Shown here one piece after another: positions 1,748-12,126 of a stretch of 64,000 nt of DNA. A program made the translations under genes and the position numbers. Numbering within the stretch: position 1 is the first letter of the stretch; every line of letters starts with the position of its first letter. The stretch comes from Pirellulales bacterium. GTDB lineage: Bacteria; Planctomycetota; Planctomycetia; Pirellulales; JADZDJ01. The notes beneath the pieces are model-generated. The model saw nothing but the letters and a program-made list of their open reading frames with translations. It was not told the origin of the DNA and did no database searches. The stretch is taken from the NCBI GenBank assembly GCA_035499655.1, contig DATJYL010000185.1:843-64842 (forward strand). The letters run 5' to 3'.

Positions 1748-3070
1748 TCATGCGTATTCGCGGATGCGGCGGCCGATGGCTTCGCCCAATGCTTCACGCA
1801 CGCTGTCGATGGTGATGCGGTCGAACACTTGCTGGAAGAAGCCGGCCACGACCATCCGCGTGGCTTCCTTACGAGTCAGACCCCGGCACTGTGCGTAAAA
1901 AATCATTTCGTCGTCCACCCGGCCGGTAGTGGAACCGTGCGTGCAGCGGACATCGTCGGCCTGAATTTCCAAGCCGGGAATGGAATCGGCCCGGGCATGG
2001 TCGGAAAGCATCAGGTTGTCGTTGCGCTGGTAGCCGTCAGTTTTTTGAGCGCCGTGGTCGACTTTGATCATCCCGCGCCATACCAGCCGCGATTGATCTT
2101 GCAGTGCGCCTTTGTACAACAAATCGCTTTTGCAATACGGGGCCTGATGATGCTGCAACGTGTGATACGACAAATGCTGCTTGCCTTCGGTGAACATGAC
2201 ACCGTTCACCTGGGCGTGGGCATCGGAACCGGCCAGCGCCACATGCTGATTGACTTTGGCCAGCCGCGCGCCCAGCGCGCCAATGGTCCATTGCAGTTGC
2301 CCGCCGGCTTCGACGATCGCTTTTTGATGGGCGAAATGCCACACGCCGGTGCCCCAATTTTGCAGATTCACGTAGCGGAGCTTCGCGCCGGGACCGACGA
2401 TCAGCTCGATCGCGCCGCAGTGGAGACCCGGATGCGCATCGCTAACATTTTCCGCTAATATGGTGGCTTCTGCGCCGTCTTCGAGAATGATTAAGGCATG
2501 CCCAAAATCCACGCCGCCACCAACGATTTCGGTAACCATGTGGAGAGGTTCATTTACAACCACGCCCTTTGGGACGATTACAAGTATTGCGCCGGACCAG
2601 CAAGCTGCATGAAGAGCCGTAAATTTGTCAGCTCGAAAATTAACAGCGTGAAATAAATATCTCTTGATAATGCCTTCGTATTTTGGGTCATGCACCAACG
2701 AGTCGAGGCTTCCAAACACTACGCCTCGGGCATCCCATTTCGGATTAAGACTTGAGAAATACAAGTGATTATTCGTAGTAATATGCTGACCACCAAGTGA
2801 CACACCATGGCTTAGCAGCCCTTGGTTCGGAACGTGACTTAAGGAGTCGAAATGTGGCAAGCCCGTCCGGTCGAGCCCAAAGTTTTCTAGCCGGAACAGG
2901 CGGATGTCGGTGCGCATCCATTCTTCGTCGGCTCGACTGGGAAGCGGTAAATCTTGAAATATCTGCCAAGCTGTGCGGCGGGCCTTGAGAAGCCAATCGG
3001 GTTCCTGGCGAGCGGCGAGAAATTCTTCAAAGGTTTCGCCGCTGAAACCTGTAGAGGAAATAGTACTCAT
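1748..3070 (-). CDS. sufD: Fe-S cluster assembly protein SufD
   Basis: 440 aa. Beta-helix SufBD-family sequence, lies downstream of sufC/sufB. The ATG overlaps the stop of the upstream small ORF (ATGA). Confidence 0.8.
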   Translation of the reverse strand: MSTISSTGFSGETFEEFLAARQEPDWLLKARRTAWQIFQDLPLPSRADEEWMRTDIRLFRLENFGLDRTGLPHFDSLSHVPNQGLLSHGVSLGGQHITTNNHLYFSSLNPKWDARGVVFGSLDSLVHDPKYEGIIKRYLFHAVNFRADKFTALHAACWSGAILVIVPKGVVVNEPLHMVTEIVGGGVDFGHALIILEDGAEATILAENVSDAHPGLHCGAIELIVGPGAKLRYVNLQNWGTGVWHFAHQKAIVEAGGQLQWTIGALGARLAKVNQHVALAGSDAHAQVNGVMFTEGKQHLSYHTLQHHQAPYCKSDLLYKGALQDQSRLVWRGMIKVDHGAQKTDGYQRNDNLMLSDHARADSIPGLEIQADDVRCTHGSTTGRVDDEMIFYAQCRGLTRKEATRMVVAGFFQQVFDRITIDSVREALGEAIGRRIREYA

Positions 3071-3246
3071 GCAGGACGGCGCCGCTTTCGTTGGATAACT
3101 TTGCCATTACGCTGGACTTGGCCTTTGCTATTAATCAGTCCACTGTCCAACAGCGATTTGAACTGCTCGCTACGTGGTTTCTGGTGCGCCTTTGCGACAA
3201 TGCGCTTGGATTTATCGATCAATTCTCTGTCAAGATTCGACGACAT
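3067..3246 (-). CDS. Small, highly basic protein (59 aa; MSSNLDRELIDKSKRIVAKAHQKPRSEQFKSLLDSGLINSKGQVQRNGKVIQRKRRRPA), missing from the ORF track (<60 aa). Candidate partner or antitoxin-like component of the low-GC insert
   Basis: Manual reverse-complement translation. The ATG sits 7 nt after the X stop with an AGGTGA Shine-Dalgarno-like sequence. Its TGA overlaps the sufD ATG (ATGA). Low-GC DNA. K/R-rich. Confidence 0.5.
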   Translation of the reverse strand: MSSNLDRELIDKSKRIVAKAHQKPRSEQFKSLLDSGLINSKGQVQRNGKVIQRKRRRPA

Positions 3247-3253
3247 AGGTCAC

Positions 3254-3745
3254 CTATATGTTATGGAAATCCCGCAGTTGAATACATGTTGGGTCGCGGA
3301 CTGCAATTTGAATATGGGTTTGGCGACGAATAAACGATCCAGGGAACACTGGTTCTCCTTCTTCAAACGGACAACGCACCGTTTGATACTCAATAACCTC
3401 GTCTCCTAAACCATTTTCCATCAAATTGAGGAACTGTTTTATAACCAGACAATCAAGGTCTCGTAGCTTGCCTCGATTTCTAGGCAACGGCAACGCCTGT
3501 TCTTGGAACAATTCTGCCAAACTTTCGTAAGTATCGCGCAATACATCCAGGTATTCAGTATCTGTTAAGTCGAAACATCTTCCAAGAGAGATGTCGGCTT
3601 CGATAATCATCGGATCCGCAATGTTGCGTAAAGGATCGACAGCAAATTCCCTCGCTCTTCGTAAACTACCTTCCCAAAAATATATGCCCGGCCCCAACCA
3701 GTCGTATTGATTTTCACTCGGAACCCAATCGTCGATTATAAGCAT
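3254..3745 (-). CDS. Hypothetical acidic protein (~163 aa) encoded on a low-GC insert. Weak motif resemblance to ART-fold DarT/DUF3990-like proteins (GIYFWEGS vs DarT PFYFAPRS; N-terminal GFHAC vs YHFTH)
   Basis: The ORF-track ORF 3254..4096 has a GC-rich nonsense N-terminal extension overlapping the sufB 3' end. The real start is likely ATG 3745, or GTG 3817 which lies 2 nt after the sufB stop. The region 3080-3800 is visibly AT-richer than its surroundings. Confidence 0.5.
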   Translation of the reverse strand: MLIIDDWVPSENQYDWLGPGIYFWEGSLRRAREFAVDPLRNIADPMIIEADISLGRCFDLTDTEYLDVLRDTYESLAELFQEQALPLPRNRGKLRDLDCLVIKQFLNLMENGLGDEVIEYQTVRCPFEEGEPVFPGSFIRRQTHIQIAVRDPTCIQLRDFHNI

Positions 3746-3819
3746 CCCATCGCGTAGCTCTTCGGCAAATGAACGTTCACAAGCATGAAAGCCAATGACG
3801 TTTTGCGCGATTGTCACAA

Positions 3820-5226
3820 TTACCCCACCGAGCCTTCCATTTGCAGCTCGATCAGGCGGTTCATTTCCACGGCGTATTCCATCGGCAGCTCTTTCACCAA
3901 CGGCTCGATGAAACCGGAGACGATCATCGTGCTGGCCTCGGCTTCTGACAGGCCGCGGCTTTGCAGGTAGAACAATTGCTCCTCGCTGATGCGGGACACG
4001 CTGGCCTCGTGGCCAAGCTGGACGTTTTGCTCGTCGACTTCGATATACGGATACGTGTCGCTGCGGCTTTTGGAGTCGAGAATCAGGGCGTCGCACACCA
4101 CGTTCGATTTGGCTCGTTTCGCGCCGCGCTCCACTTTGACCAGGCCGCGATAACTGGCGCGGCCGCCGTTTTTGGAAATGCTTTTGCTGATGATGCGTCC
4201 GGATGTGTCGGGAGCACAGTGAACCAACTTCGCGCCGGCATCTTGATGCTGGCCGTGCGAGGCGAAGGCGATCGACAAAATTTCACCCCGCGCGCCCGGC
4301 TCCATCATGTACACGGCCGGATATTTCATCGTCAGGCGGCTGCCCAGGTTGCCGTCGATCCATTCCATCAGCGCGCCTTCATAAGCTAGGGCCCGCTTGG
4401 TGACGAGGTTGTAAATGTTGTTGGCCCAATTTTGGATGGTGGTGTAACGGCAGCGGGCGTGCTTGTTCACCACAATTTCCACCACGGCCGAGTGCAGGCT
4501 CTCGGTGGTATACATGGGAGCGGTGCAGCCTTCCACATAATGCACTTGGGCCCCTTCGTCGACAATGATCAGCGTGCGTTCGAACTGGCCCATGCTTTCG
4601 GCGTTGATGCGGAAATAAGCTTGCAGCGGGAATTCGATTTTCACTCCCTTGGGCACGTAAATGAATGACCCACCCGACCACACCGCCGAATTGAGTGCGG
4701 CGAATTTGTTGTCCGCCGGCGGGATGATGGTGGCGAAATACTTGCGGACCAATTCGGGATGTTCGCGGACCGCCGAATCGGTATCGGTGAAAATCACGCC
4801 TTGCCGGGCCAGGTCTTCCTTGAGCGAACCGTAAATCACTTCGCTTTCAAACTGAGCTTTGACGCCGGCGAGATATTTTTTCTCGGCCTCGGGAATGCCC
4901 AGGCGGTCGAAGGTCTTTTTGATTTCCTCGGGAACTTCGTCCCAAGTTTTGCCCTGCTCGTTGGTGGGCTTCAGGTAGTAGTAGATGTCCTGGAAATCGA
5001 GACTGATGTTGCCGCCCCAGCGCGGCATGGGCTTGGAGTTGAAAATCTCCAGCGCATTCAGGCGGAACTGCCGCATCCAATCCGGCTCCCCCTTGATGTC
5101 GGAAATTTGATTGACGACGGCGGCATCCAGCCCCTTGCGGGCTTTGAACACGGCCTTGGACTCCGTACGGAAATCGTACTTGTTGATTTCAGCCGGAACG
5201 GAGGTATCAAGCACTTCAGTAGACAT
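3820..5226 (-). CDS. sufB: Fe-S cluster assembly protein SufB
   Basis: 468 aa. Strong SufB-family sequence (…[22 protein letters not shown]…). Confidence 0.9.
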
Positions 5227-5421: not shown

Positions 5422-6285
5422 TCATGTAATTCCGGCCGGCTCCTTGGCGGTCATCGCTTTTTCTTCCGCGGCGGCGTCGGGGTAGGCTTGGCGGATGCGT
5501 TCGTAACCTTTCTTGTGTAATTCTGCTGCAAGTTCTGGGCCGCCCGTTTCCACAATCCGGCCGCCGAGCATCACATGAGTTTTCAGCGGTGTGTTGTGTT
5601 CCAGCAGTTGCTCGTGATGGGTGATAATTAAAATGCCCATAGCCGCGCCGCCGATTTCGGCGATGCTTTGGCTGGCCAGGCGGACAGCGTCGGCGTCAAG
5701 CCCGCTGTCGGTTTCGTCCAAAATGGCGAACTTGGGCTGCAACATAGCCAGTTGCAGGATTTCGGCCCGTTTCATTTCGCCGCCAGAAAAACCCTCGTTC
5801 ACATAGCGGCGGGCGAACTCGGCGTTGATTTTAAGTTGTTCCATCTTGGAGCGGAGTTCGGTGCGAAACTCCTTCATGGGAATCAGCTCTTCCCCTTCTT
5901 TGCGATCGGGCCGGCGCACATTGGTGGCGGCGTGACGCAAAAAGTCGGCCATTTTCACGCCGGGAATCGCCATCGGCCGCTGGAAGGCCAGGAAAATTCC
6001 GTGGCGGGCGCGTTCATTCGGCTCCATTGACAGGACGTCGTGAACTTTGCCTTCGGCGTCGATCAGTTCGACTTTGCCACTGGTTACTTCGTAACCGGGA
6101 TGACCGGCGATGGCGTAACCTAGCGTGCTTTTTCCGGAACCGTTAGGGCCCATCAGGGCGTGAACTTCGCCGCGGCGAATTTCCAAATTGACCCCTTTGA
6201 GAATCGGCTTACCGCCTACGGAGACGTGCAAATCGGTAATGCGGAGTGCTACGGGCATGGCGGTGGGTTTGGTGATGGCGACCAT
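5422..6285 (-). CDS. sufC: Fe-S cluster assembly ATPase SufC
   Basis: ABC ATPase Walker A GPNGSGKST, ABC signature LSGGE (…FSGGEMKR…) and SufC-like length. Confidence 0.9.
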   Translation of the reverse strand: MVAITKPTAMPVALRITDLHVSVGGKPILKGVNLEIRRGEVHALMGPNGSGKSTLGYAIAGHPGYEVTSGKVELIDAEGKVHDVLSMEPNERARHGIFLAFQRPMAIPGVKMADFLRHAATNVRRPDRKEGEELIPMKEFRTELRSKMEQLKINAEFARRYVNEGFSGGEMKRAEILQLAMLQPKFAILDETDSGLDADAVRLASQSIAEIGGAAMGILIITHHEQLLEHNTPLKTHVMLGGRIVETGGPELAAELHKKGYERIRQAYPDAAAEEKAMTAKEPAGIT

Positions 6286-6400: not shown

Positions 6401-7024
6401 CTAGCCTGTGATTTTTTGGTGATCGTAAACGGGCGGAAGATCTTCGGGAGCTTGCACGTAACCGCTGTGGTGCGGCACGGGCAATTCGTCTTCGCTTTTT
6501 TCGCCCAGGGCGGCAAAGCTCAATTCCGGTGAGGGTTTCCTTGTAAGTTTGTGTCCCTTGATTTTGTCTTGAATTCGCATCAGGCCTTCCAGCAGCGCTT
6601 CGGGCCGAGGCGGGCAACCGGGGACGTACACGTCGACCGGCACGACCAAGTCCACGCCTTTCACGACGTGGTAACCCCATTTGAAGTACGGTCCACCGCC
6701 GGTCGTGCACGCTCCCATGGCGATGACGAACTTCGGATCGGGCATCATGTTGTACAAGCGGCGCACACGGCTGGCCATTTTGTACGTGACCGTGCCGGCG
6801 ACAATCATCAAATCAGCCTGGCGAGGCGTGGCGCGGAAGGCGCCGGCGCCGAAACGGTCCATATCGAAGCGGCTGGCGCCGGTGGCCATCATTTCGATCG
6901 CGCAACAGGCCAGGCCGAACGTCAGCGGCCAAATGCTCGATTGGCGGGCCCAGTTGATGGCCTGCTCCACTGTAGTAGTGATGACGTTTTCTTCAAACCG
7001 ACCTTCGATCCAAGGTTGGGTCAT
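6401..7024 (-). CDS. nuoB: NuoB-family [4Fe-4S] protein (NADH-quinone oxidoreductase 20 kDa subunit homolog). Stand-alone inside the suf operon
   Basis: 207 aa. [21 protein letters not shown] and VPGCPPRPE cysteine motifs of the NuoB/Nqo6 family. No other nuo genes adjacent. Confidence 0.8.
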
Positions 7025-7107: not shown

Positions 7108-7743
7108 CTAATTCTTTTCAAAGCGGCAGCAGGTGGCGCCATCCAGGCGGCAATCGCTGAGCCGCACTTTTTCTCCAAGGAGTTCGGTAAATAACATTTT
7201 TTCGACGGCGCAAATGCCCCGGTCTTGCTCGGCCAATTCAGGGTACGGGCAAGCGTAGGCTGTGAGCACGGGTAGTGGATCTTTGCGATCGGCGGTTTGA
7301 CGATGCTCTACGACGAAGGGCAAATTGCGCTCCGCCATGAGATCAGACACATTTTGCATTCGTTCGGCAGTGTTTTGACCTTTCATGCGATCGCCATACA
7401 AACCGGCCATCTTTTTGGCGATCCGCTGCAATACGCCGCCGCGAACTTCCGGATTCTTGATCGAACGAACTTCCTGCCACAGTGCCAACGTTAAGTCGGC
7501 GAAATTGGAGGCGGTTTGTCGACGGCCCTTTTCGGTGAGCGAATAACGGTGACTGGGCCGGCCCCGAAGTGGCTTGGCGGTTTCTCGTTTAATGATTCCC
7601 TGATTCATCAAGCGGTTAAGCCGTTGCCGCACAGCCGTGGCCGTAACGTGCATGGCCGTGGTGAGATCGCCAATGCCCAGCGCGCCGTGCTGCTGGAGCA
7701 ACTCGATTAAGCCGGTGTCGGAGGTTTCAGTGTGCATGGCCAT
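7108..7743 (-). CDS. sufR: SufR-like transcriptional regulator (DeoR-type wHTH plus C-terminal Cys-rich Fe-S sensing region)
   Basis: 211 aa. N-terminal HTH (…DLTTAMHVTATAVRQRLNRLMNQGII…). C-terminal C-x12-C-x13-C-x2-CC pattern (CPYPELAEQDRGICAVEK…SDCRLDGATCC). First gene of the suf operon. Confidence 0.65.
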   Translation of the reverse strand: MAMHTETSDTGLIELLQQHGALGIGDLTTAMHVTATAVRQRLNRLMNQGIIKRETAKPLRGRPSHRYSLTEKGRRQTASNFADLTLALWQEVRSIKNPEVRGGVLQRIAKKMAGLYGDRMKGQNTAERMQNVSDLMAERNLPFVVEHRQTADRKDPLPVLTAYACPYPELAEQDRGICAVEKMLFTELLGEKVRLSDCRLDGATCCRFEKN

Positions 7744-8099: not shown

Positions 8100-10913
8100 T
8101 TAAAAACTATTTGCACCGCTGACGCTAACAGTGCCGTTGATTACTTTCCCGTCAAGCGTGGTGTCGCCGCTGCCGGTGGCCGGGCTGCTGTGAATGGAGT
8201 TGGCAACCACGGTGTTCGAATTCAGAGTTAGCGTAGCGCCCACAGCGTTGGCGGTGCCGCCGCCGAACATTTCGAGAGTGCCGTCGATGCCGTTGCCATC
8301 GCCTTGGCCGTCGGTGCCGGTGCTGGCGGGTGTTCCGCCGCCATCGTTTTGGCCGTCGTTTTTACCGTTGCTAACGGTACTGCTCAGCAAATTGCCGGCA
8401 ATGGTCGAGGAATGGACGGTGGCAGTTCCCGAATTGCCGATGCCACCGCCATAGATTTCGATGTCGCCAAACACGGCGTCGCCACAGTTGATGCCGCAAT
8501 CGTTGTGGGCGCCGTCGCTTTGGCCGTCGCTGTCGCCATCGTTGTTTCCGTTGGCAATGTTGCTGGTGATCAAATTCGCCACGAGCACGCATTGATCGAC
8601 ATCAAGAATGTCGAAATTCGCAATGCCGCCGCCTTCCATTCCGACGAAGCCGGAAACGGCGTTTCCGTTGGCGCGGCCGTCTTTATCTTCCTGGTTGTTA
8701 TTGCCGCAGTTGTTGCCGTCCTGGTTGCCGTTTTTGATAATGCTGGTGATGGAGTTGTCGGAAATCGTGCTTGCGCGAACGGTTAAATCGCCATTGTTGC
8801 AGATGCCCGCCCCTTGGAGCACGAGTACGGCGTCGGTGTTGACGCTGGCCAGGGCGTCGCCATCGCCGTCGTTGTTGCCATCCATGTTGCCGTTGTTGTT
8901 GCCGTTAGTGACGGTACTTTTGATGGAATTAGCCGCCACGACGCAATGGCTGATCGTGTCGGTATTGGTGGAAGATTCGTAGTCGATGCCGCCGCCAGAG
9001 ATGTACACGTATCCGGCCACACCGTTGCCGTTGTTTTTGCCTTCGCTGTTGCCTAGGCCGGCGTTGTTTTCGCCGTTGCCGTCGCCGTCGTTGTTGCCGT
9101 TGGTGATCTTCGAGATGATCGAGTTGGCTGAAATGACGCAATGTGTGATGGTCGCCGAGCCGTCGGTATCGGTGGCTATTGCGCCGCCAAACAGCGTGAT
9201 ATTGCCGGCCACGCCATTGCCGTTAGTGTTGCCGTTATCGTCTTGGGTGTGGACGCCATTGTTGTTGCCGTTGTTGTTGCCGTTGGTGACCGAGCAGACG
9301 ATGGAATTGGCGACATAGCTGCTGTTGGCAGTGGTGAAAGTACCGTCGTTGTACAGTCCGCCGCCGGCAATGGTGATGTTGCCGTATACACCGTTGCCGT
9401 TGTCGCTGCCGTTGTCGGTAGCGGCGACGTCGATGTCGTCGTCCCCGTTATTGTTGCCATTACCGGAGCCATTGGTAATGCTGCAGGTGATGGAATTGGC
9501 CGAGAGCGTACAGCGATTGAGGACTGCGGTTGAGTTCACGTCGTTCATCAAACCGCCGCCGAATAGCACGCTGTTACCGTCGACGCCGTTGCCGTTTTCG
9601 TTGCCGCCGTGGTTGCCGGTGTCGTCGTCGGACATTCCGCCGTTGCCATTGCCGTTACCGCCGCTGTTGGTTACGGAGAGGAAAATCGAATTGGCAACGA
9701 TGCTGGTTCCGCTGGCGTTAAGCGTGCCGGCGGCGTTGTAAATGCCTCCGCCGTAAACCGTAATACCATCGACAACGCTGACGATGCCGTTGCCGTTTTG
9801 GTTGCCACTGCTGGTGCCGTCGCTGCTATCGCCGTTGCTGTTGCCGTTTTCGCTGCCGTTGACCACCGTGCATCCGGCGCGGTTTCCGGAGATCACGTCG
9901 TTGGTCAAGGTGGCGGTGTTGCCAAAATTGTAAATTCCGCCTCCCTCGATGAGGATACTGTCCCAGTCGCCGTTGCCGTTAAGGTTGCCGTTGTCAGTGG
10001 TGCCGGGATCGTCGCCGTTGCCGTTGAAATTTCCGTTGCCGATGCTCGCGTTCTTGTTGCCATTGGTGATGGTGCAGGTGGCGGAATTATTCGACACTAC
10101 GCTGGCAGTGATCGTTAAGGCGCCCGAAGCGTTGTAAATTGCGCCGCCGGCGATGAACGGCTTGGCAATCCCCCCGTTCCCGTTGTCGTCGCCATTGTCG
10201 TTGGTCGTCGCGCCACTTCCTTGGTTGTTCCCCTGGTCAACTCCGTTGATGAGGGTAAACGCTACCGAGTTGCCCTTGAGGATGCTATTGTTCACCGTGG
10301 TAACGCCCGCGGTAAAAATGGCGCCTCCGGTCAGTGAAAAGTCTGTGCTGAAAAAAGAATTGGCCGTCAAACTTGCCGAGTTGCCGGTGAGGATGGCGGC
10401 ATTGAGCTTGAGCGTGGCGTTCTGCTCGACAAAGATCGCGCCTCCTTGGTACGAACCAGGCACGGCGCCGGATTCCAAGCCGTTTTTCAACGTGATCGTT
10501 TTCAACGACAGGGTGGCGCCCGATTCGACGTCGAAGAAGCGGAAATCGGAATTACCGCTGCTGGTGCTGCGGGCCAGAATATGGCCGACGCCGTTGATGG
10601 TAAGATTGTCGCCGGTGGTAATGGCTGGCAAGCCGTTGAAGCCGTCGCTGGTGTTGTCGGCCGTCGACTCGAACAGCGTAATGTTCTTGCCGAGAGTGAT
10701 AGTGTTGTTCCCGCCAGCGGCGTTGGCGGCGTTGATGGCGGCAATCAAACCGGCCTGGGTAGTCACGGTTGCAAGGAGGCGCCGGCCTTCGAGCGTTTCA
10801 AAGCATCGCCGCGAACGAGCAAATGGCAAATGGGAGCATCGCGTGTTTTTCCGCGGCGTTATTTTTTGGCGAGGAAATAGTCTGTCGAAAGAATTCCAGA
10901 AAGTGGAAAACAT
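8100..10913 (-). CDS. Giant secreted parallel beta-helix protein with Chlamydial-Pmp-type (GGxI…FxxN / ANSI…NGN) repeats. Planctomycete N-terminal FE.LE.RRLLA motif
   Basis: About 10 repeats of ~47 aa ([IV]ANSI.S.[IV]TNGNNNGN…GN[IV]…[FY]GGG[IL]YN…). Asn/Gly/Asp-rich. Probable start MFSTFWNSF… (10913) rather than the ORF-track 11144, which overlaps dus. Confidence 0.6.
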   Translation of the reverse strand: MFSTFWNSFDRLFPRQKITPRKNTRCSHLPFARSRRCFETLEGRRLLATVTTQAGLIAAINAANAAGGNNTITLGKNITLFESTADNTSDGFNGLPAITTGDNLTINGVGHILARSTSSGNSDFRFFDVESGATLSLKTITLKNGLESGAVPGSYQGGAIFVEQNATLKLNAAILTGNSASLTANSFFSTDFSLTGGAIFTAGVTTVNNSILKGNSVAFTLINGVDQGNNQGSGATTNDNGDDNGNGGIAKPFIAGGAIYNASGALTITASVVSNNSATCTITNGNKNASIGNGNFNGNGDDPGTTDNGNLNGNGDWDSILIEGGGIYNFGNTATLTNDVISGNRAGCTVVNGSENGNSNGDSSDGTSSGNQNGNGIVSVVDGITVYGGGIYNAAGTLNASGTSIVANSIFLSVTNSGGNGNGNGGMSDDDTGNHGGNENGNGVDGNSVLFGGGLMNDVNSTAVLNRCTLSANSITCSITNGSGNGNNNGDDDIDVAATDNGSDNGNGVYGNITIAGGGLYNDGTFTTANSSYVANSIVCSVTNGNNNGNNNGVHTQDDNGNTNGNGVAGNITLFGGAIATDTDGSATITHCVISANSIISKITNGNNDGDGNGENNAGLGNSEGKNNGNGVAGYVYISGGGIDYESSTNTDTISHCVVAANSIKSTVTNGNNNGNMDGNNDGDGDALASVNTDAVLVLQGAGICNNGDLTVRASTISDNSITSIIKNGNQDGNNCGNNNQEDKDGRANGNAVSGFVGMEGGGIANFDILDVDQCVLVANLITSNIANGNNDGDSDGQSDGAHNDCGINCGDAVFGDIEIYGGGIGNSGTATVHSSTIAGNLLSSTVSNGKNDGQNDGGGTPASTGTDGQGDGNGIDGTLEMFGGGTANAVGATLTLNSNTVVANSIHSSPATGSGDTTLDGKVINGTVSVSGANSF

Positions 10914-11055
10914 AGTTTGCCTTTCGCAAAGTTGCCGTTCGCAGCGTGCCCGATCGATTGCTGATTGCTGAGACCGCCAGCGGTATGCTCGCAGTCTGGC
11001 AAGCTGCGATGCCTTTGTCAACGAAATTGCCGCAAAATTTGCGACCGAGGGGCCG

Positions 11056-12126
11056 CTAAGATGTCGGGAAGAAGCGTTCCACAGCGTCGTTGAACTCCGC
11101 CGGAGTAGATACCCGCGCCACGCTGGCGCGAAAGTCGCGCGCACCGCGGCGGCCTTGAGCGTAGCAACATGCGAACTTGCGCATCAAAACCGTGCCCCGC
11201 TCAGCACCGAATCGCTGGCAGACTAATCGGTAATGATGATCAAGCAGGTCACGCTCTTCGTCCGGGGTAGGATCGGGCGGAATTGATTCGCCGCCAAGCG
11301 CCGCCGCACATTGGCGGAACAGCCACGGCTTACCCAGCGCAGCCCGGGCAATCATCACCCCATCGACGCCGTAATTTTGAAAGGCGTGGAGCACCGCTTG
11401 GGGCGAATCTAAATCGCCGTTGCCAATCAGCGGCATGCGTTTCAAATGCGGTTTGATCGATGCAATCCGCTGCCAATCGGCTTGCCCTTTGAAAAAATCT
11501 TGGGCCGTGCGGCCATGCACGGTAAGTGCCGCCGCGCCGGCCGATTCAATCGTCGTGGCAATTTCGACGGCAGTAATGTTGTCGCGTGTGCAGCCCAGGC
11601 GAATTTTGGCCGTGACTGGCGTTGGACGGCATGCCTGCACCACCCGCTCCACAATGCGGCCCACGCGCTGAGGATCTCGCAGTAAATACGAACCACTGTG
11701 AGCGCGCTGGGCGACGTCTTTCACCGGGCAACCGAAGTTGATGTCGACTACGCTGACTTTGTATTCCGTCGCCAAGCGATGACCCACGGCAGCCAGGGTT
11801 TCCGGATCGTTATCCCACATTTGCACGGCCAGCGGACGCGCTTCTTCCGCCACGCCCCACAGCCGATCAGGCGCTTCGGGCTGCTCTTTCTGATTCATCC
11901 AGGAGAACGCGCGGGCGGAAACCATTTCGGTGGCTTGCAGGCCGACGCCGCCAAATTCACGCACGACCTGCCGATAAGCGTAGTTCGTGAAACCCGCCAT
12001 GGGGGCCTGCAACAACGGCGGATCGACCACCAGCGAGCCGATGCGCAACGGGCGAATTTCCGGCAGCACCCCGAACGCCGATTCTGTATGATTGGGCGGC
12101 GGCAAGGTCATGGGCGGAATGCGCAT
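11056..12126 (-). CDS. dus: tRNA-dihydrouridine synthase (Dus family, FMN TIM barrel), paralog 1
   Basis: …PLLQAPMAGFTNYAYRQVVREFGGVGLQATEMVSARAF… Dus signature. Start ambiguous (M at 12126 or 12111; the ORF-track start 12204 is less likely). Confidence 0.8.
   Translation of the reverse strand: MRIPPMTLPPPNHTESAFGVLPEIRPLRIGSLVVDPPLLQAPMAGFTNYAYRQVVREFGGVGLQATEMVSARAFSWMNQKEQPEAPDRLWGVAEEARPLAVQMWDNDPETLAAVGHRLATEYKVSVVDINFGCPVKDVAQRAHSGSYLLRDPQRVGRIVERVVQACRPTPVTAKIRLGCTRDNITAVEIATTIESAGAAALTVHGRTAQDFFKGQADWQRIASIKPHLKRMPLIGNGDLDSPQAVLHAFQNYGVDGVMIARAALGKPWLFRQCAAALGGESIPPDPTPDEERDLLDHHYRLVCQRFGAERGTVLMRKFACCYAQGRRGARDFRASVARVSTPAEFNDAVERFFPTS

Follow-up and report, generated by a model that had tools for sequence, protein, structure and literature searches.

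What are the two small genes that separate sufB from sufD in a Pirellulales bacterium, and how did they come to lie inside an essential operon? The locus is part of a stretch of 64,000 nucleotides (nt) of contig DATJYL010000185.1 (assembly GCA_035499655.1), which we refer to as the window. A preliminary description had reported a low-GC gene pair at this junction, named X and Y here, and had proposed that X is an ADP-ribosyltransferase (ART)-like toxin followed by a small basic partner. Our analysis suggests that X and Y probably form a compact, chaperone-less cassette of the toxin-antitoxin (TA) or defence type, built around a toxin resembling CmdT and placed in a cargo hotspot within the operon. 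Both genes are at present annotated as 'hypothetical', and Y is shorter than the length cut-offs in common use for open reading frames (ORFs).

Anatomy and composition of the insert

The sufB-sufD junction is filled by a two-gene insert, with 749 nt between the sufB stop codon and the sufD ATG. Its coordinates and anatomy, read again from the sequence, are as had been described. The insert and its flanks comprise the following features.

3820..5226, minus strand: sufB, the left flank; stop codon TAA at 3822-3820; Pfam SUFBD_core, E 3e-86
3254..3817, minus strand: gene X, from GTG 3817 to TAG 3256-3254; 187 aa, acidic, isoelectric point (pI) 4.5
3250..3255, minus strand: AGGTGA, a Shine-Dalgarno (SD)-like site for Y, read from the sequence; 3 nt before the Y ATG and overlapping the X stop codon TAG 3256-3254
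3067..3246, minus strand: gene Y, from ATG 3246 to TGA 3069-3067; 59 aa, of which 16 are lysine or arginine, pI 11.6
3067..3070, minus strand: ATGA overlap of the Y stop codon (TGA 3069-3067) with the sufD start codon (ATG 3070-3068), a translational-coupling junction, read from the sequence
1748..3070, minus strand: sufD, the right flank; Pfam SUFBD_core, E 3e-82

The GTG of X is 2 nt past the sufB stop codon, and 7 nt separate the X stop from the Y start. X had been given a length of about 163 aa, which has to be corrected to 187 aa from GTG 3817. A start at ATG 3745 was rejected because it would remove G9, H11 and C13, which are encoded upstream of this codon and are conserved across the X family. 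The overlap of Y with sufD agrees with the earlier proposal that translation of sufD is coupled to the insert. The sufD product is identical to the NCBI record 'SufD [Pirellulales bacterium]'.

The insert region (751 nt) has a GC content of 45.9% against a window mean of 56.6% (standard deviation 3.4%, computed in 751-nt windows). It is the lowest-GC stretch of the 64 kb, as only 0.18% of all such windows have a GC content at or below that of the insert, and every one of these overlaps it. The conspicuously low GC that had been noted was hence confirmed by computation, although the surroundings are at about 55-57% and not at the 60% given before. X and Y have a GC content at third codon positions (GC3) of 0.41 and 0.54, compared with 0.75 in sufB and 0.61 in sufD, and the GC3 of X and Y lies under that of the flanks in every operon that carries them. 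The SD-like site of Y had been regarded as unusual for this genome, a view which did not survive: an SD-like AAGGAGAA lies upstream of the sufB ATG, and an SD core accompanies 17 of 46 crude long ORFs of the window against a background of 12%.

No internal promoter or terminator signal above shuffle expectation was found in the cassette, and no direct or inverted repeats flank its borders. Given the lack of signals of its own and the tight packing of the genes, we are therefore confident that X-Y is transcribed together with sufCB...D. On the basis of their homologues and of low ratios of nonsynonymous to synonymous substitution (dN/dS), both X and Y are real genes.

X is a predicted ADP-ribosyltransferase of a large family

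The first search returned 196 homologues of X, all labelled 'hypothetical'. A profile search of 1.84 billion representatives gave 3,687 clusters (at 50% identity) with E<=1e-3, and 2,188 with E<=1e-10. Relatives of X are present in at least 583 GTDB species genomes, in several copies in some of them, and span Planctomycetota, Myxococcota, Acidobacteriota, Bacteroidota, Verrucomicrobiota, Pseudomonadota and others. Scans of Pfam and NCBIfam found no family for X; it matches a PHROG of unknown function (E 5e-11).

An AlphaFold2 model of X, built on a 64-sequence alignment, has a predicted local distance difference test (pLDDT) score of 93.8 and a predicted template modelling (pTM) score of 0.88, and it shows the ART beta-sandwich fold of the H-Y-E ADP-ribosyltransferases. 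Foldseek matched the model to PARP1/2 at E ~1e-4 and, in BFVD, to phage ART-PolyVal-like proteins. In the hidden Markov model of the family, 'yHGc' aligns with 'WHGS' of PARP2 and 'GeGIYFWE' with 'GKGIYFAD' (E 0.025). The same motif alignment, covering the N-terminal half only, was given by hhalign to an approximate sequence of the PARP1 ART domain. By this alignment, therefore, H11 and Y46 fall where the H-Y-E triad has its canonical His and Tyr. For the third catalytic residue the best candidate is E153, part of an invariant R-x-x-F-x-E-G motif, and the other candidate is Q170. H11, Y46 and E153 are invariant in all nine copies of X that we found embedded in suf operons. We conclude that X, as predicted from these motifs and the modelled fold, is very probably an enzymatically active H-Y-E (PARP/diphtheria-toxin-like) ADP-ribosyltransferase. 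The earlier view of X as ART-like hence stands as far as the PARP motifs go, which align at H11 and G-x-G-I-Y46-F, and falls as to DarT/DUF3990, for which there is no Pfam match at E<=1. The relatives of X would make up a large unnamed family of PARP-like ADP-ribosyltransferases paired with a dedicated mini-protein.

Some members of the profile search have a different architecture. P0355 (692 aa) combines an X domain at the N-terminus with RHS/YD repeats after it, and could be a gene-calling artefact. P0241, P0246 and P0085 (about 255 aa) are extended at the N-terminus by about 65 aa, a part with CxxC...CxxC that has a zinc-ribbon-like look.

Y is a conserved partner of X

Small ORFs beside the homologues of X cluster as one family, and BLASTP alone connects 33 of them. 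A partner of the Y type could be detected at 62 of the 79 GTDB X loci, located downstream of X at 31, upstream at 29 and on the opposite strand at 2. The partner gene is downstream in Planctomycetota and Myxococcota. Acidobacteriota, Bacteroidota and plasmids of proteobacteria and cyanobacteria have a shorter partner, which ends in '...EGIYTxxGKLTKxYR', lies directly upstream and overlaps the X start. The claim that Y is a genuine partner of X is borne out by this adjacency, and the comparison supports Y as a conserved cognate partner. In being a conserved adjacent pair, mobile and of patchy distribution, X-Y is like a generic type II TA module. An additional hint that X and Y may interact physically comes from P0276 (304 aa, profile search), a natural fusion of an X domain with a Y-like domain which could, however, be a gene-calling artefact.

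The core of the Y family consists of a helix, the motif 'P/T-x-x-E', a second helix and 'G-[IL]-[ILY]-x-x-x-G-x-[VL]', with G36 and G42 invariant. Tails differ between members, some being basic and others acidic or of low complexity; the basic tail of the window Y is common only to its closest orthologue. The AlphaFold2 model of Y (pLDDT 70.6) has helices at 2-22 and 25-35, a short hairpin that contains G36 and G42, and a disordered lysine/arginine tail at 50-59. Y had been described as nucleic-acid-binding-like, an idea that is weak because conservation is confined to the helix-helix-hairpin core and does not extend to the basic tail. A hint of similarity to NikR and the ribbon-helix-helix fold (E 0.11) was rejected because the model of Y has no N-terminal strand. 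There is no Pfam family for Y, for which NCBIfam and PHROG were uninformative too, and the Y-family members that were scanned (30 of them against PADLOC) gave no match to Pfam or PADLOC models. In a 'long Y' of about 150 aa (L014, L020, L038, L050 and P0387-P0469) the Y core makes up the N-terminal part and is joined by a further conserved domain at the C-terminus; this variant occurs commonly in Pirellulaceae and Planctomycetaceae, and one member of it weakly matches DUF3892.

The wider family is found on mobile elements. Homologues of X, all annotated as 'hypothetical', are on 67 plasmid records, 35 of which belong to conjugative plasmids. The pair on pPSR1 is surrounded by insertion sequence elements, an integrase and a Phd/ParE module. 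At L172, which belongs to the sister clade of the suf-embedded X proteins, X is flanked by two PemK toxins and a DUF4276 + AAA_21 pair. The only match in a phage collection was a partial one, in Synechococcus phage S-B28.

Relation to CmdT and other known systems

The PADLOC model PD-T4-9_A matches the window X in partial alignments (E 7e-5 and 1.8e-3), and it is matched by 62 of 64 members of the X family when these are scanned singly (best E 1e-7). PD-T4-9 is CmdTAC, an anti-phage toxin-antitoxin-chaperone system of E. coli (PMC11618068, PMC9519451), and from the gene order cmdT-cmdA-cmdC and the length of the model we infer that PD-T4-9_A is CmdT. Thus X appears to be a remote relative of CmdT, by remote homology and not by clear membership, and CmdT is the sole sequence-level link of X to a studied protein. 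The statement that the pair matches no described TA or defence pair was therefore not quite right.

During T4 infection CmdT, an H-Y-[E/D/Q] ART, modifies mRNA by ADP-ribosylation and blocks translation (PMC11618068; bioRxiv 10.1101/2024.02.24.581848). Its antitoxin CmdA is encoded downstream of CmdT, has two N-terminal helices and a disordered tail, and varies widely in sequence between CmdTAC systems (PMC11618068, PMC9519451). CmdA also helps CmdT to fold, and the system is triggered when a phage capsid protein titrates the SecB-like chaperone. X-Y resembles CmdTAC in these respects: a toxin of about 190 aa with an ART fold and an H-Y-[E/D/Q] triad (predicted for X), the toxin gene first with a small ORF next, and a partner which in the case of Y is likewise predicted to have two N-terminal helices and a disordered C-terminal tail and is variable across systems. 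Unlike in CmdTAC, the partner gene of X is upstream in many lineages, and X-Y lies inside a housekeeping operon whereas CmdTAC lies in a prophage defence locus. Lacking a chaperone, and with a Y that does not match CmdA, X-Y falls outside CmdTAC.

With the PARP/diphtheria-toxin-like ARTs, including phage ART-PolyVal, X shares the 'H-G-x' and 'G-x-G-I-Y-F' motifs of the NAD+ site. It differs from this group in being a minimal single domain devoid of regulatory, helical or WGR domains, at an identity of only 10-16%, and in having a dedicated small partner protein; Pfam gave no PARP or ART-PolyVal match to X. The RES-Xre, MbcTA and ParST toxins also have an ART-like fold, but with an R-E-S signature, and their antitoxins are of the Xre/COG5642 types, which are unrelated to Y; these toxins act by phosphorolysis of NAD+ or by ADP-ribosylating Prs. 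DarTG resembles X-Y in that an ART-fold toxin belongs to a TA/defence system, and DarT targets nucleic acid. X-Y is not DarTG, as X has neither the DarT domain (PF14487) nor, at E<=1, a match to DUF3990 (PF13151), and the macrodomain antitoxin DarG is absent. That X has no macrodomain partner had been noticed before, and its neighbours are indeed Y (no Pfam family), sufB and sufD.

X-Y is best filed as a two-gene system around a CmdT-like H-Y-E ART, drawn from a large unannotated family. Such toxins, if they act on nucleic acid, would extend nucleic-acid ADP-ribosylation far past enterobacterial prophages and would be candidates for new RNA or DNA ADP-ribosylation specificities. As the family is without the chaperone of CmdTAC, it must be controlled differently.

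suf operons with and without the cassette

The arrangement sufB-X-Y-sufD was found in eight other distinct operons besides that of the window, which gives nine copies in all. Identity to the window X is 81% in L082, 57% in L002 and L083, 50-51% in L003 and L004 (Anatilimnocola), 49% in L084, 44% in L171 and 42% in L170. All nine copies keep every motif residue and are tightly packed, with distances of 2-74 nt between sufB and X, 7-41 nt between X and Y, and -4 to 26 nt between Y and sufD. The -4 overlap of Y with sufD recurs in L082 and L171, and the gaps are 1-26 nt in the remaining cassettes. An SD-like site precedes Y in most of the other suf-embedded cassettes.

The closest suf operons (L086, L088 and L092) are without the cassette. 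L086/L087, in which SufB is 96.6% and SufD 75% identical to the window and which have the downstream phosphomutase in common with it, have a sufB-sufD spacer of 105 nt; the spacer is 72 nt in L092, and in L088 the two genes overlap. In blastn of the window against L086, identity is 81-88% over sufC, sufB, sufD and the next gene; the match over sufB (88.5%) ends at the stop codon, that is, homology breaks exactly there, and it resumes about 30 nt into sufD. This supports the earlier impression that the cassette was acquired. It had also been argued that the same two genes with genome-typical GC in related suf operons would speak against a foreign origin. The genes do recur in eight other operons, but there too their GC3 is below that of the flanks, and the nearest relatives are without them. 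A side observation on the L092 spacer is that positions 3425-3498 resemble a terminator, with the hairpin CCCACGGGCCATCCCGTGGGC and a T-run after it, between two genes that would be expected to share a transcript.

The suf-embedded X proteins all fall into a single clade in a neighbour-joining tree. In a SufD tree, operons that bear X-Y are scattered among those that do not. When closely related carriers are compared, divergence is far greater in the cassette than in its flanks. For L002 and L083, SufB and SufD are 98% and 96% identical in amino acids and the flanks have a synonymous divergence (dS) of about 0.4, whereas X is 72% identical with a dS of 1.8 and Y is 56% identical. For L003 and L004, with SufB at 93%, SufD at 89% and flank dS at 0.8-0.9, X is again 72% identical with a saturated dS and Y is 53% identical. 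Simple vertical inheritance of X-Y fails, since its carriers are scattered in the SufD tree and the dS of the cassette is far above that of the flanks. Repeated independent capture from a general pool fails as well, because the suf copies form one clade. Across pairs of related operons, where the dS of X is saturated or close to it, X has a dN/dS of 0.05-0.10 and Y one of 0.12-0.29; by this measure X-Y is under purifying selection.

These comparisons point to a suf-junction-specific lineage of a mobile cassette, which would have been gained and lost at a junction open to other small selfish cargo as well. The cassettes are probably exchanged between operons by recombination within the conserved suf genes. 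Between L082 and the window, X is 81% and the C-terminus of SufB 96% identical, and the N-terminal 290 aa of SufD are only 58-60% identical, which is below the 75% of whole-protein SufD in the insert-free L086. We take this unevenness as a sign of a recombination breakpoint within or close to the 5' part of sufD.

Other cargo at the junction

A metagenome sample anchored on SufD provided 54 resolved sufB-sufD junctions. The spacer was at most 200 nt in 44 of them, 201-500 nt in 4 and more than 500 nt in 6, and X-Y was in none of the 54. The six long inserts comprise three Uma2 endonucleases, a pair of small overlapping ORFs, a 143+126-aa pair and a 168-aa ORF. Two further Uma2 loci (L141 and L156) are outside this tally, as their contigs begin inside the 3' end of sufB, and L089 was found separately through a look-up of SufD homologues. 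The cargo is listed below.

L122:2840-3442, L137:484-1038, L157:703-1254, L141:269-823 and L156:172-726: Uma2 putative endonuclease (PF05685; E 7e-20 for the L137 copy)
L089:5480-5963: TA-like pair of a HicB-like antitoxin gene (Pfam UPF0150, E 5e-21) and a HicA-like 77-aa ORF, between sufB and sufD on a contig from a related member of Pirellulales
L100:2648-3464: 143+126-aa ORF pair
L104:2867-3373: 168-aa ORF
L112:1433-1929: overlapping 76+88-aa ORF pair with a TA-like look

The HicB-like gene of L089 is apparently frameshifted, its N-terminal part being in another frame, and the HicA-like ORF (E 0.0026) is below the Pfam cut-off. The cargo ORFs of L100, L104 and L112 have no Pfam or NCBIfam family. 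The first ORF of L100 has the pattern YRG...TTD...ECE, which may resemble that of R-S-E ART toxins. A literature search for a TA module within suf operons yielded nothing relevant.

Integration hotspots for defence genes and other cargo, located between conserved core genes, are known from the pangenomes of E. coli, Pseudomonas and Vibrio. The sufB/sufD junction is like these in holding variable cargo or nothing between the same two conserved flanks. It is unlike them in that the site is inside an essential operon, between genes of co-translated subunits, and in that the cargo measures only 0.5-0.9 kb, lacks an integrase as well as recognisable att or repeat borders, and uses the transcription of the host operon. 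The enzyme class and the TA logic are already known, and it is the intra-operon hotspot that is less expected. It would mean that selfish or defensive cargo can lodge in an essential operon, recurrently at one junction and with differing content. The junction could serve as a natural system for how inserts spread, how they persist through polarity on sufD or coupling to it, and whether they are co-opted.

Proposed mechanism and rival explanations

We propose that X is an NAD+-using H-Y-E ADP-ribosyltransferase toxin, remotely related to CmdT, and that Y would bind and neutralise it and might aid its folding, as CmdA does for CmdT. We consider it rather likely that the two proteins stand to each other as toxin and antitoxin. 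When both are made, Y would hold X inactive. If Y were lost faster than X, through proteolysis of its tail or because phage or stress blocks host expression, X would be freed, would ADP-ribosylate cellular nucleic acid and would thereby arrest growth; the trigger may be differential stability of Y once expression of the suf operon stops. By analogy with CmdT the foremost candidates for the target would be single-stranded RNA or mRNA, ahead of DNA, protein or NAD+ itself (as for MbcT), and RNA is proposed here only tentatively. The cassette would have taken the place of a short sufB-sufD spacer, at a junction that in this group serves as a landing site for small cargo, be it selfish or defensive. 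The ancestral coupling of sufB to sufD would in this genome have been replaced by that of Y to sufD, so that expression of an essential scaffold subunit would run through the cassette, and this routing could disfavour imprecise deletion.

Several points weigh against a CmdT-like TA cassette. The link to CmdT is weak for the window X itself, for which the better of the partial-length matches has an E of 7e-5, and Y has no detectable sequence similarity to CmdA models or to other antitoxin families. A SecB-like chaperone is absent from the cassette at all nine suf-embedded loci, where the gene after Y is sufD, and the known trigger logic of CmdTAC therefore cannot apply to X-Y. The third catalytic residue has two candidates, E153, which is the more probable, and Q170. 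Toxicity and neutralisation are predictions from sequence and modelled structure. Finally, a single clade at the same address in at least nine diverged operons is compatible with a suf-linked function too.

This last point speaks for the view that X-Y is a domesticated suf accessory, whose clade regulates Fe-S assembly or the stress response, for instance by reversible ADP-ribosylation of a Suf or Fe-S protein, or puts a brake on growth when oxidative or iron stress induces it along with suf. DraT, which controls nitrogenase reductase, provides an analogy. The exact position is kept in at least nine operons down to an X identity of 42%, the catalytic-type residues are intact and under purifying selection, and the cassette is a tightly packed part of the operon, coupled in translation to sufD. 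A domesticated gene pair fits poorly, however, with the absence of the cassette from the closest relatives, whose operon synteny is otherwise identical, with unrelated selfish cargo at the same junction in other relatives, with a wider family on plasmids and in TA islands that has no link to suf, and with a cassette that has diverged much more than its flanks and has a GC3 far below that of the suf genes. We regard domestication as unlikely. Equally doubtful, in our estimation, is a broader conjecture, namely that the junction is an operon-embedded hotspot where integrase-less modules (X-Y, HicAB-like, Uma2) replace the spacer between essential coupled genes, are exchanged on the suf genes and take over the stress-inducible transcription of suf and the translation of sufD, and that the suf clade of X-Y may serve the Fe-S or oxidative-stress response as an NAD+-consuming, ADP-ribosylating growth brake co-induced with suf.

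Other readings concern what X does. X could deplete NAD+ as a NADase or phosphorylase like the RES-domain toxin MbcT, with Y still its antitoxin; but its motifs are of the PARP/CmdT type, H...GxGIYF...E and not R-E-S, and its only family link at the sequence level is CmdT, which makes this improbable. A DNA ADP-ribosyltransferase of the DarT/DUF3990 type, as first suspected, is the least probable of all: Pfam gives no match at E<=1, DarT ranked well below the PARP, MbcT and DTX matches, there is no macrodomain partner, and PADLOC matches CmdT and not DarT. It might also be held that X-Y is a non-toxic passenger, either neutral acquired DNA or an inactive pseudo-enzyme kept by chance and by the polarity constraint on sufD. 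The distribution of X-Y is patchy, and CmdT alone is not toxic when expressed without CmdA (PMC11618068). Neutral or inactive DNA is nevertheless very hard to reconcile with an X dN/dS of 0.05-0.10 at a dS near or at saturation, with motif residues that are all invariant, and with thousands of family members that keep the same partner.

Neighbouring genes and other features of the window

On the minus strand the gene order is HTH regulator, NuoB-like, sufC, sufB, X, Y, sufD, where HTH stands for helix-turn-helix. The members upstream of sufB are as follows.

5422..6285, minus strand: sufC, ABC ATPase, upstream operon member; an ORF whose syntenic gene in relatives carries ABC_tran
6401..7024, minus strand: stand-alone NuoB-like (Oxidored_q6) gene, upstream of sufC
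7108..7743, minus strand: HTH regulator gene, upstream of the NuoB-like gene

The position of the NuoB-like gene and the HTH regulator before sufC is kept in all related suf operons examined, and the pair is an unusual suf component. Beyond them, at 8100-11144 on the minus strand, there is an ORF of 1,014 aa with many G/N/D-rich repeats (GNGNG..., 'ITNGN..NGN'), which probably encodes a repetitive secreted or beta-helix-type protein.

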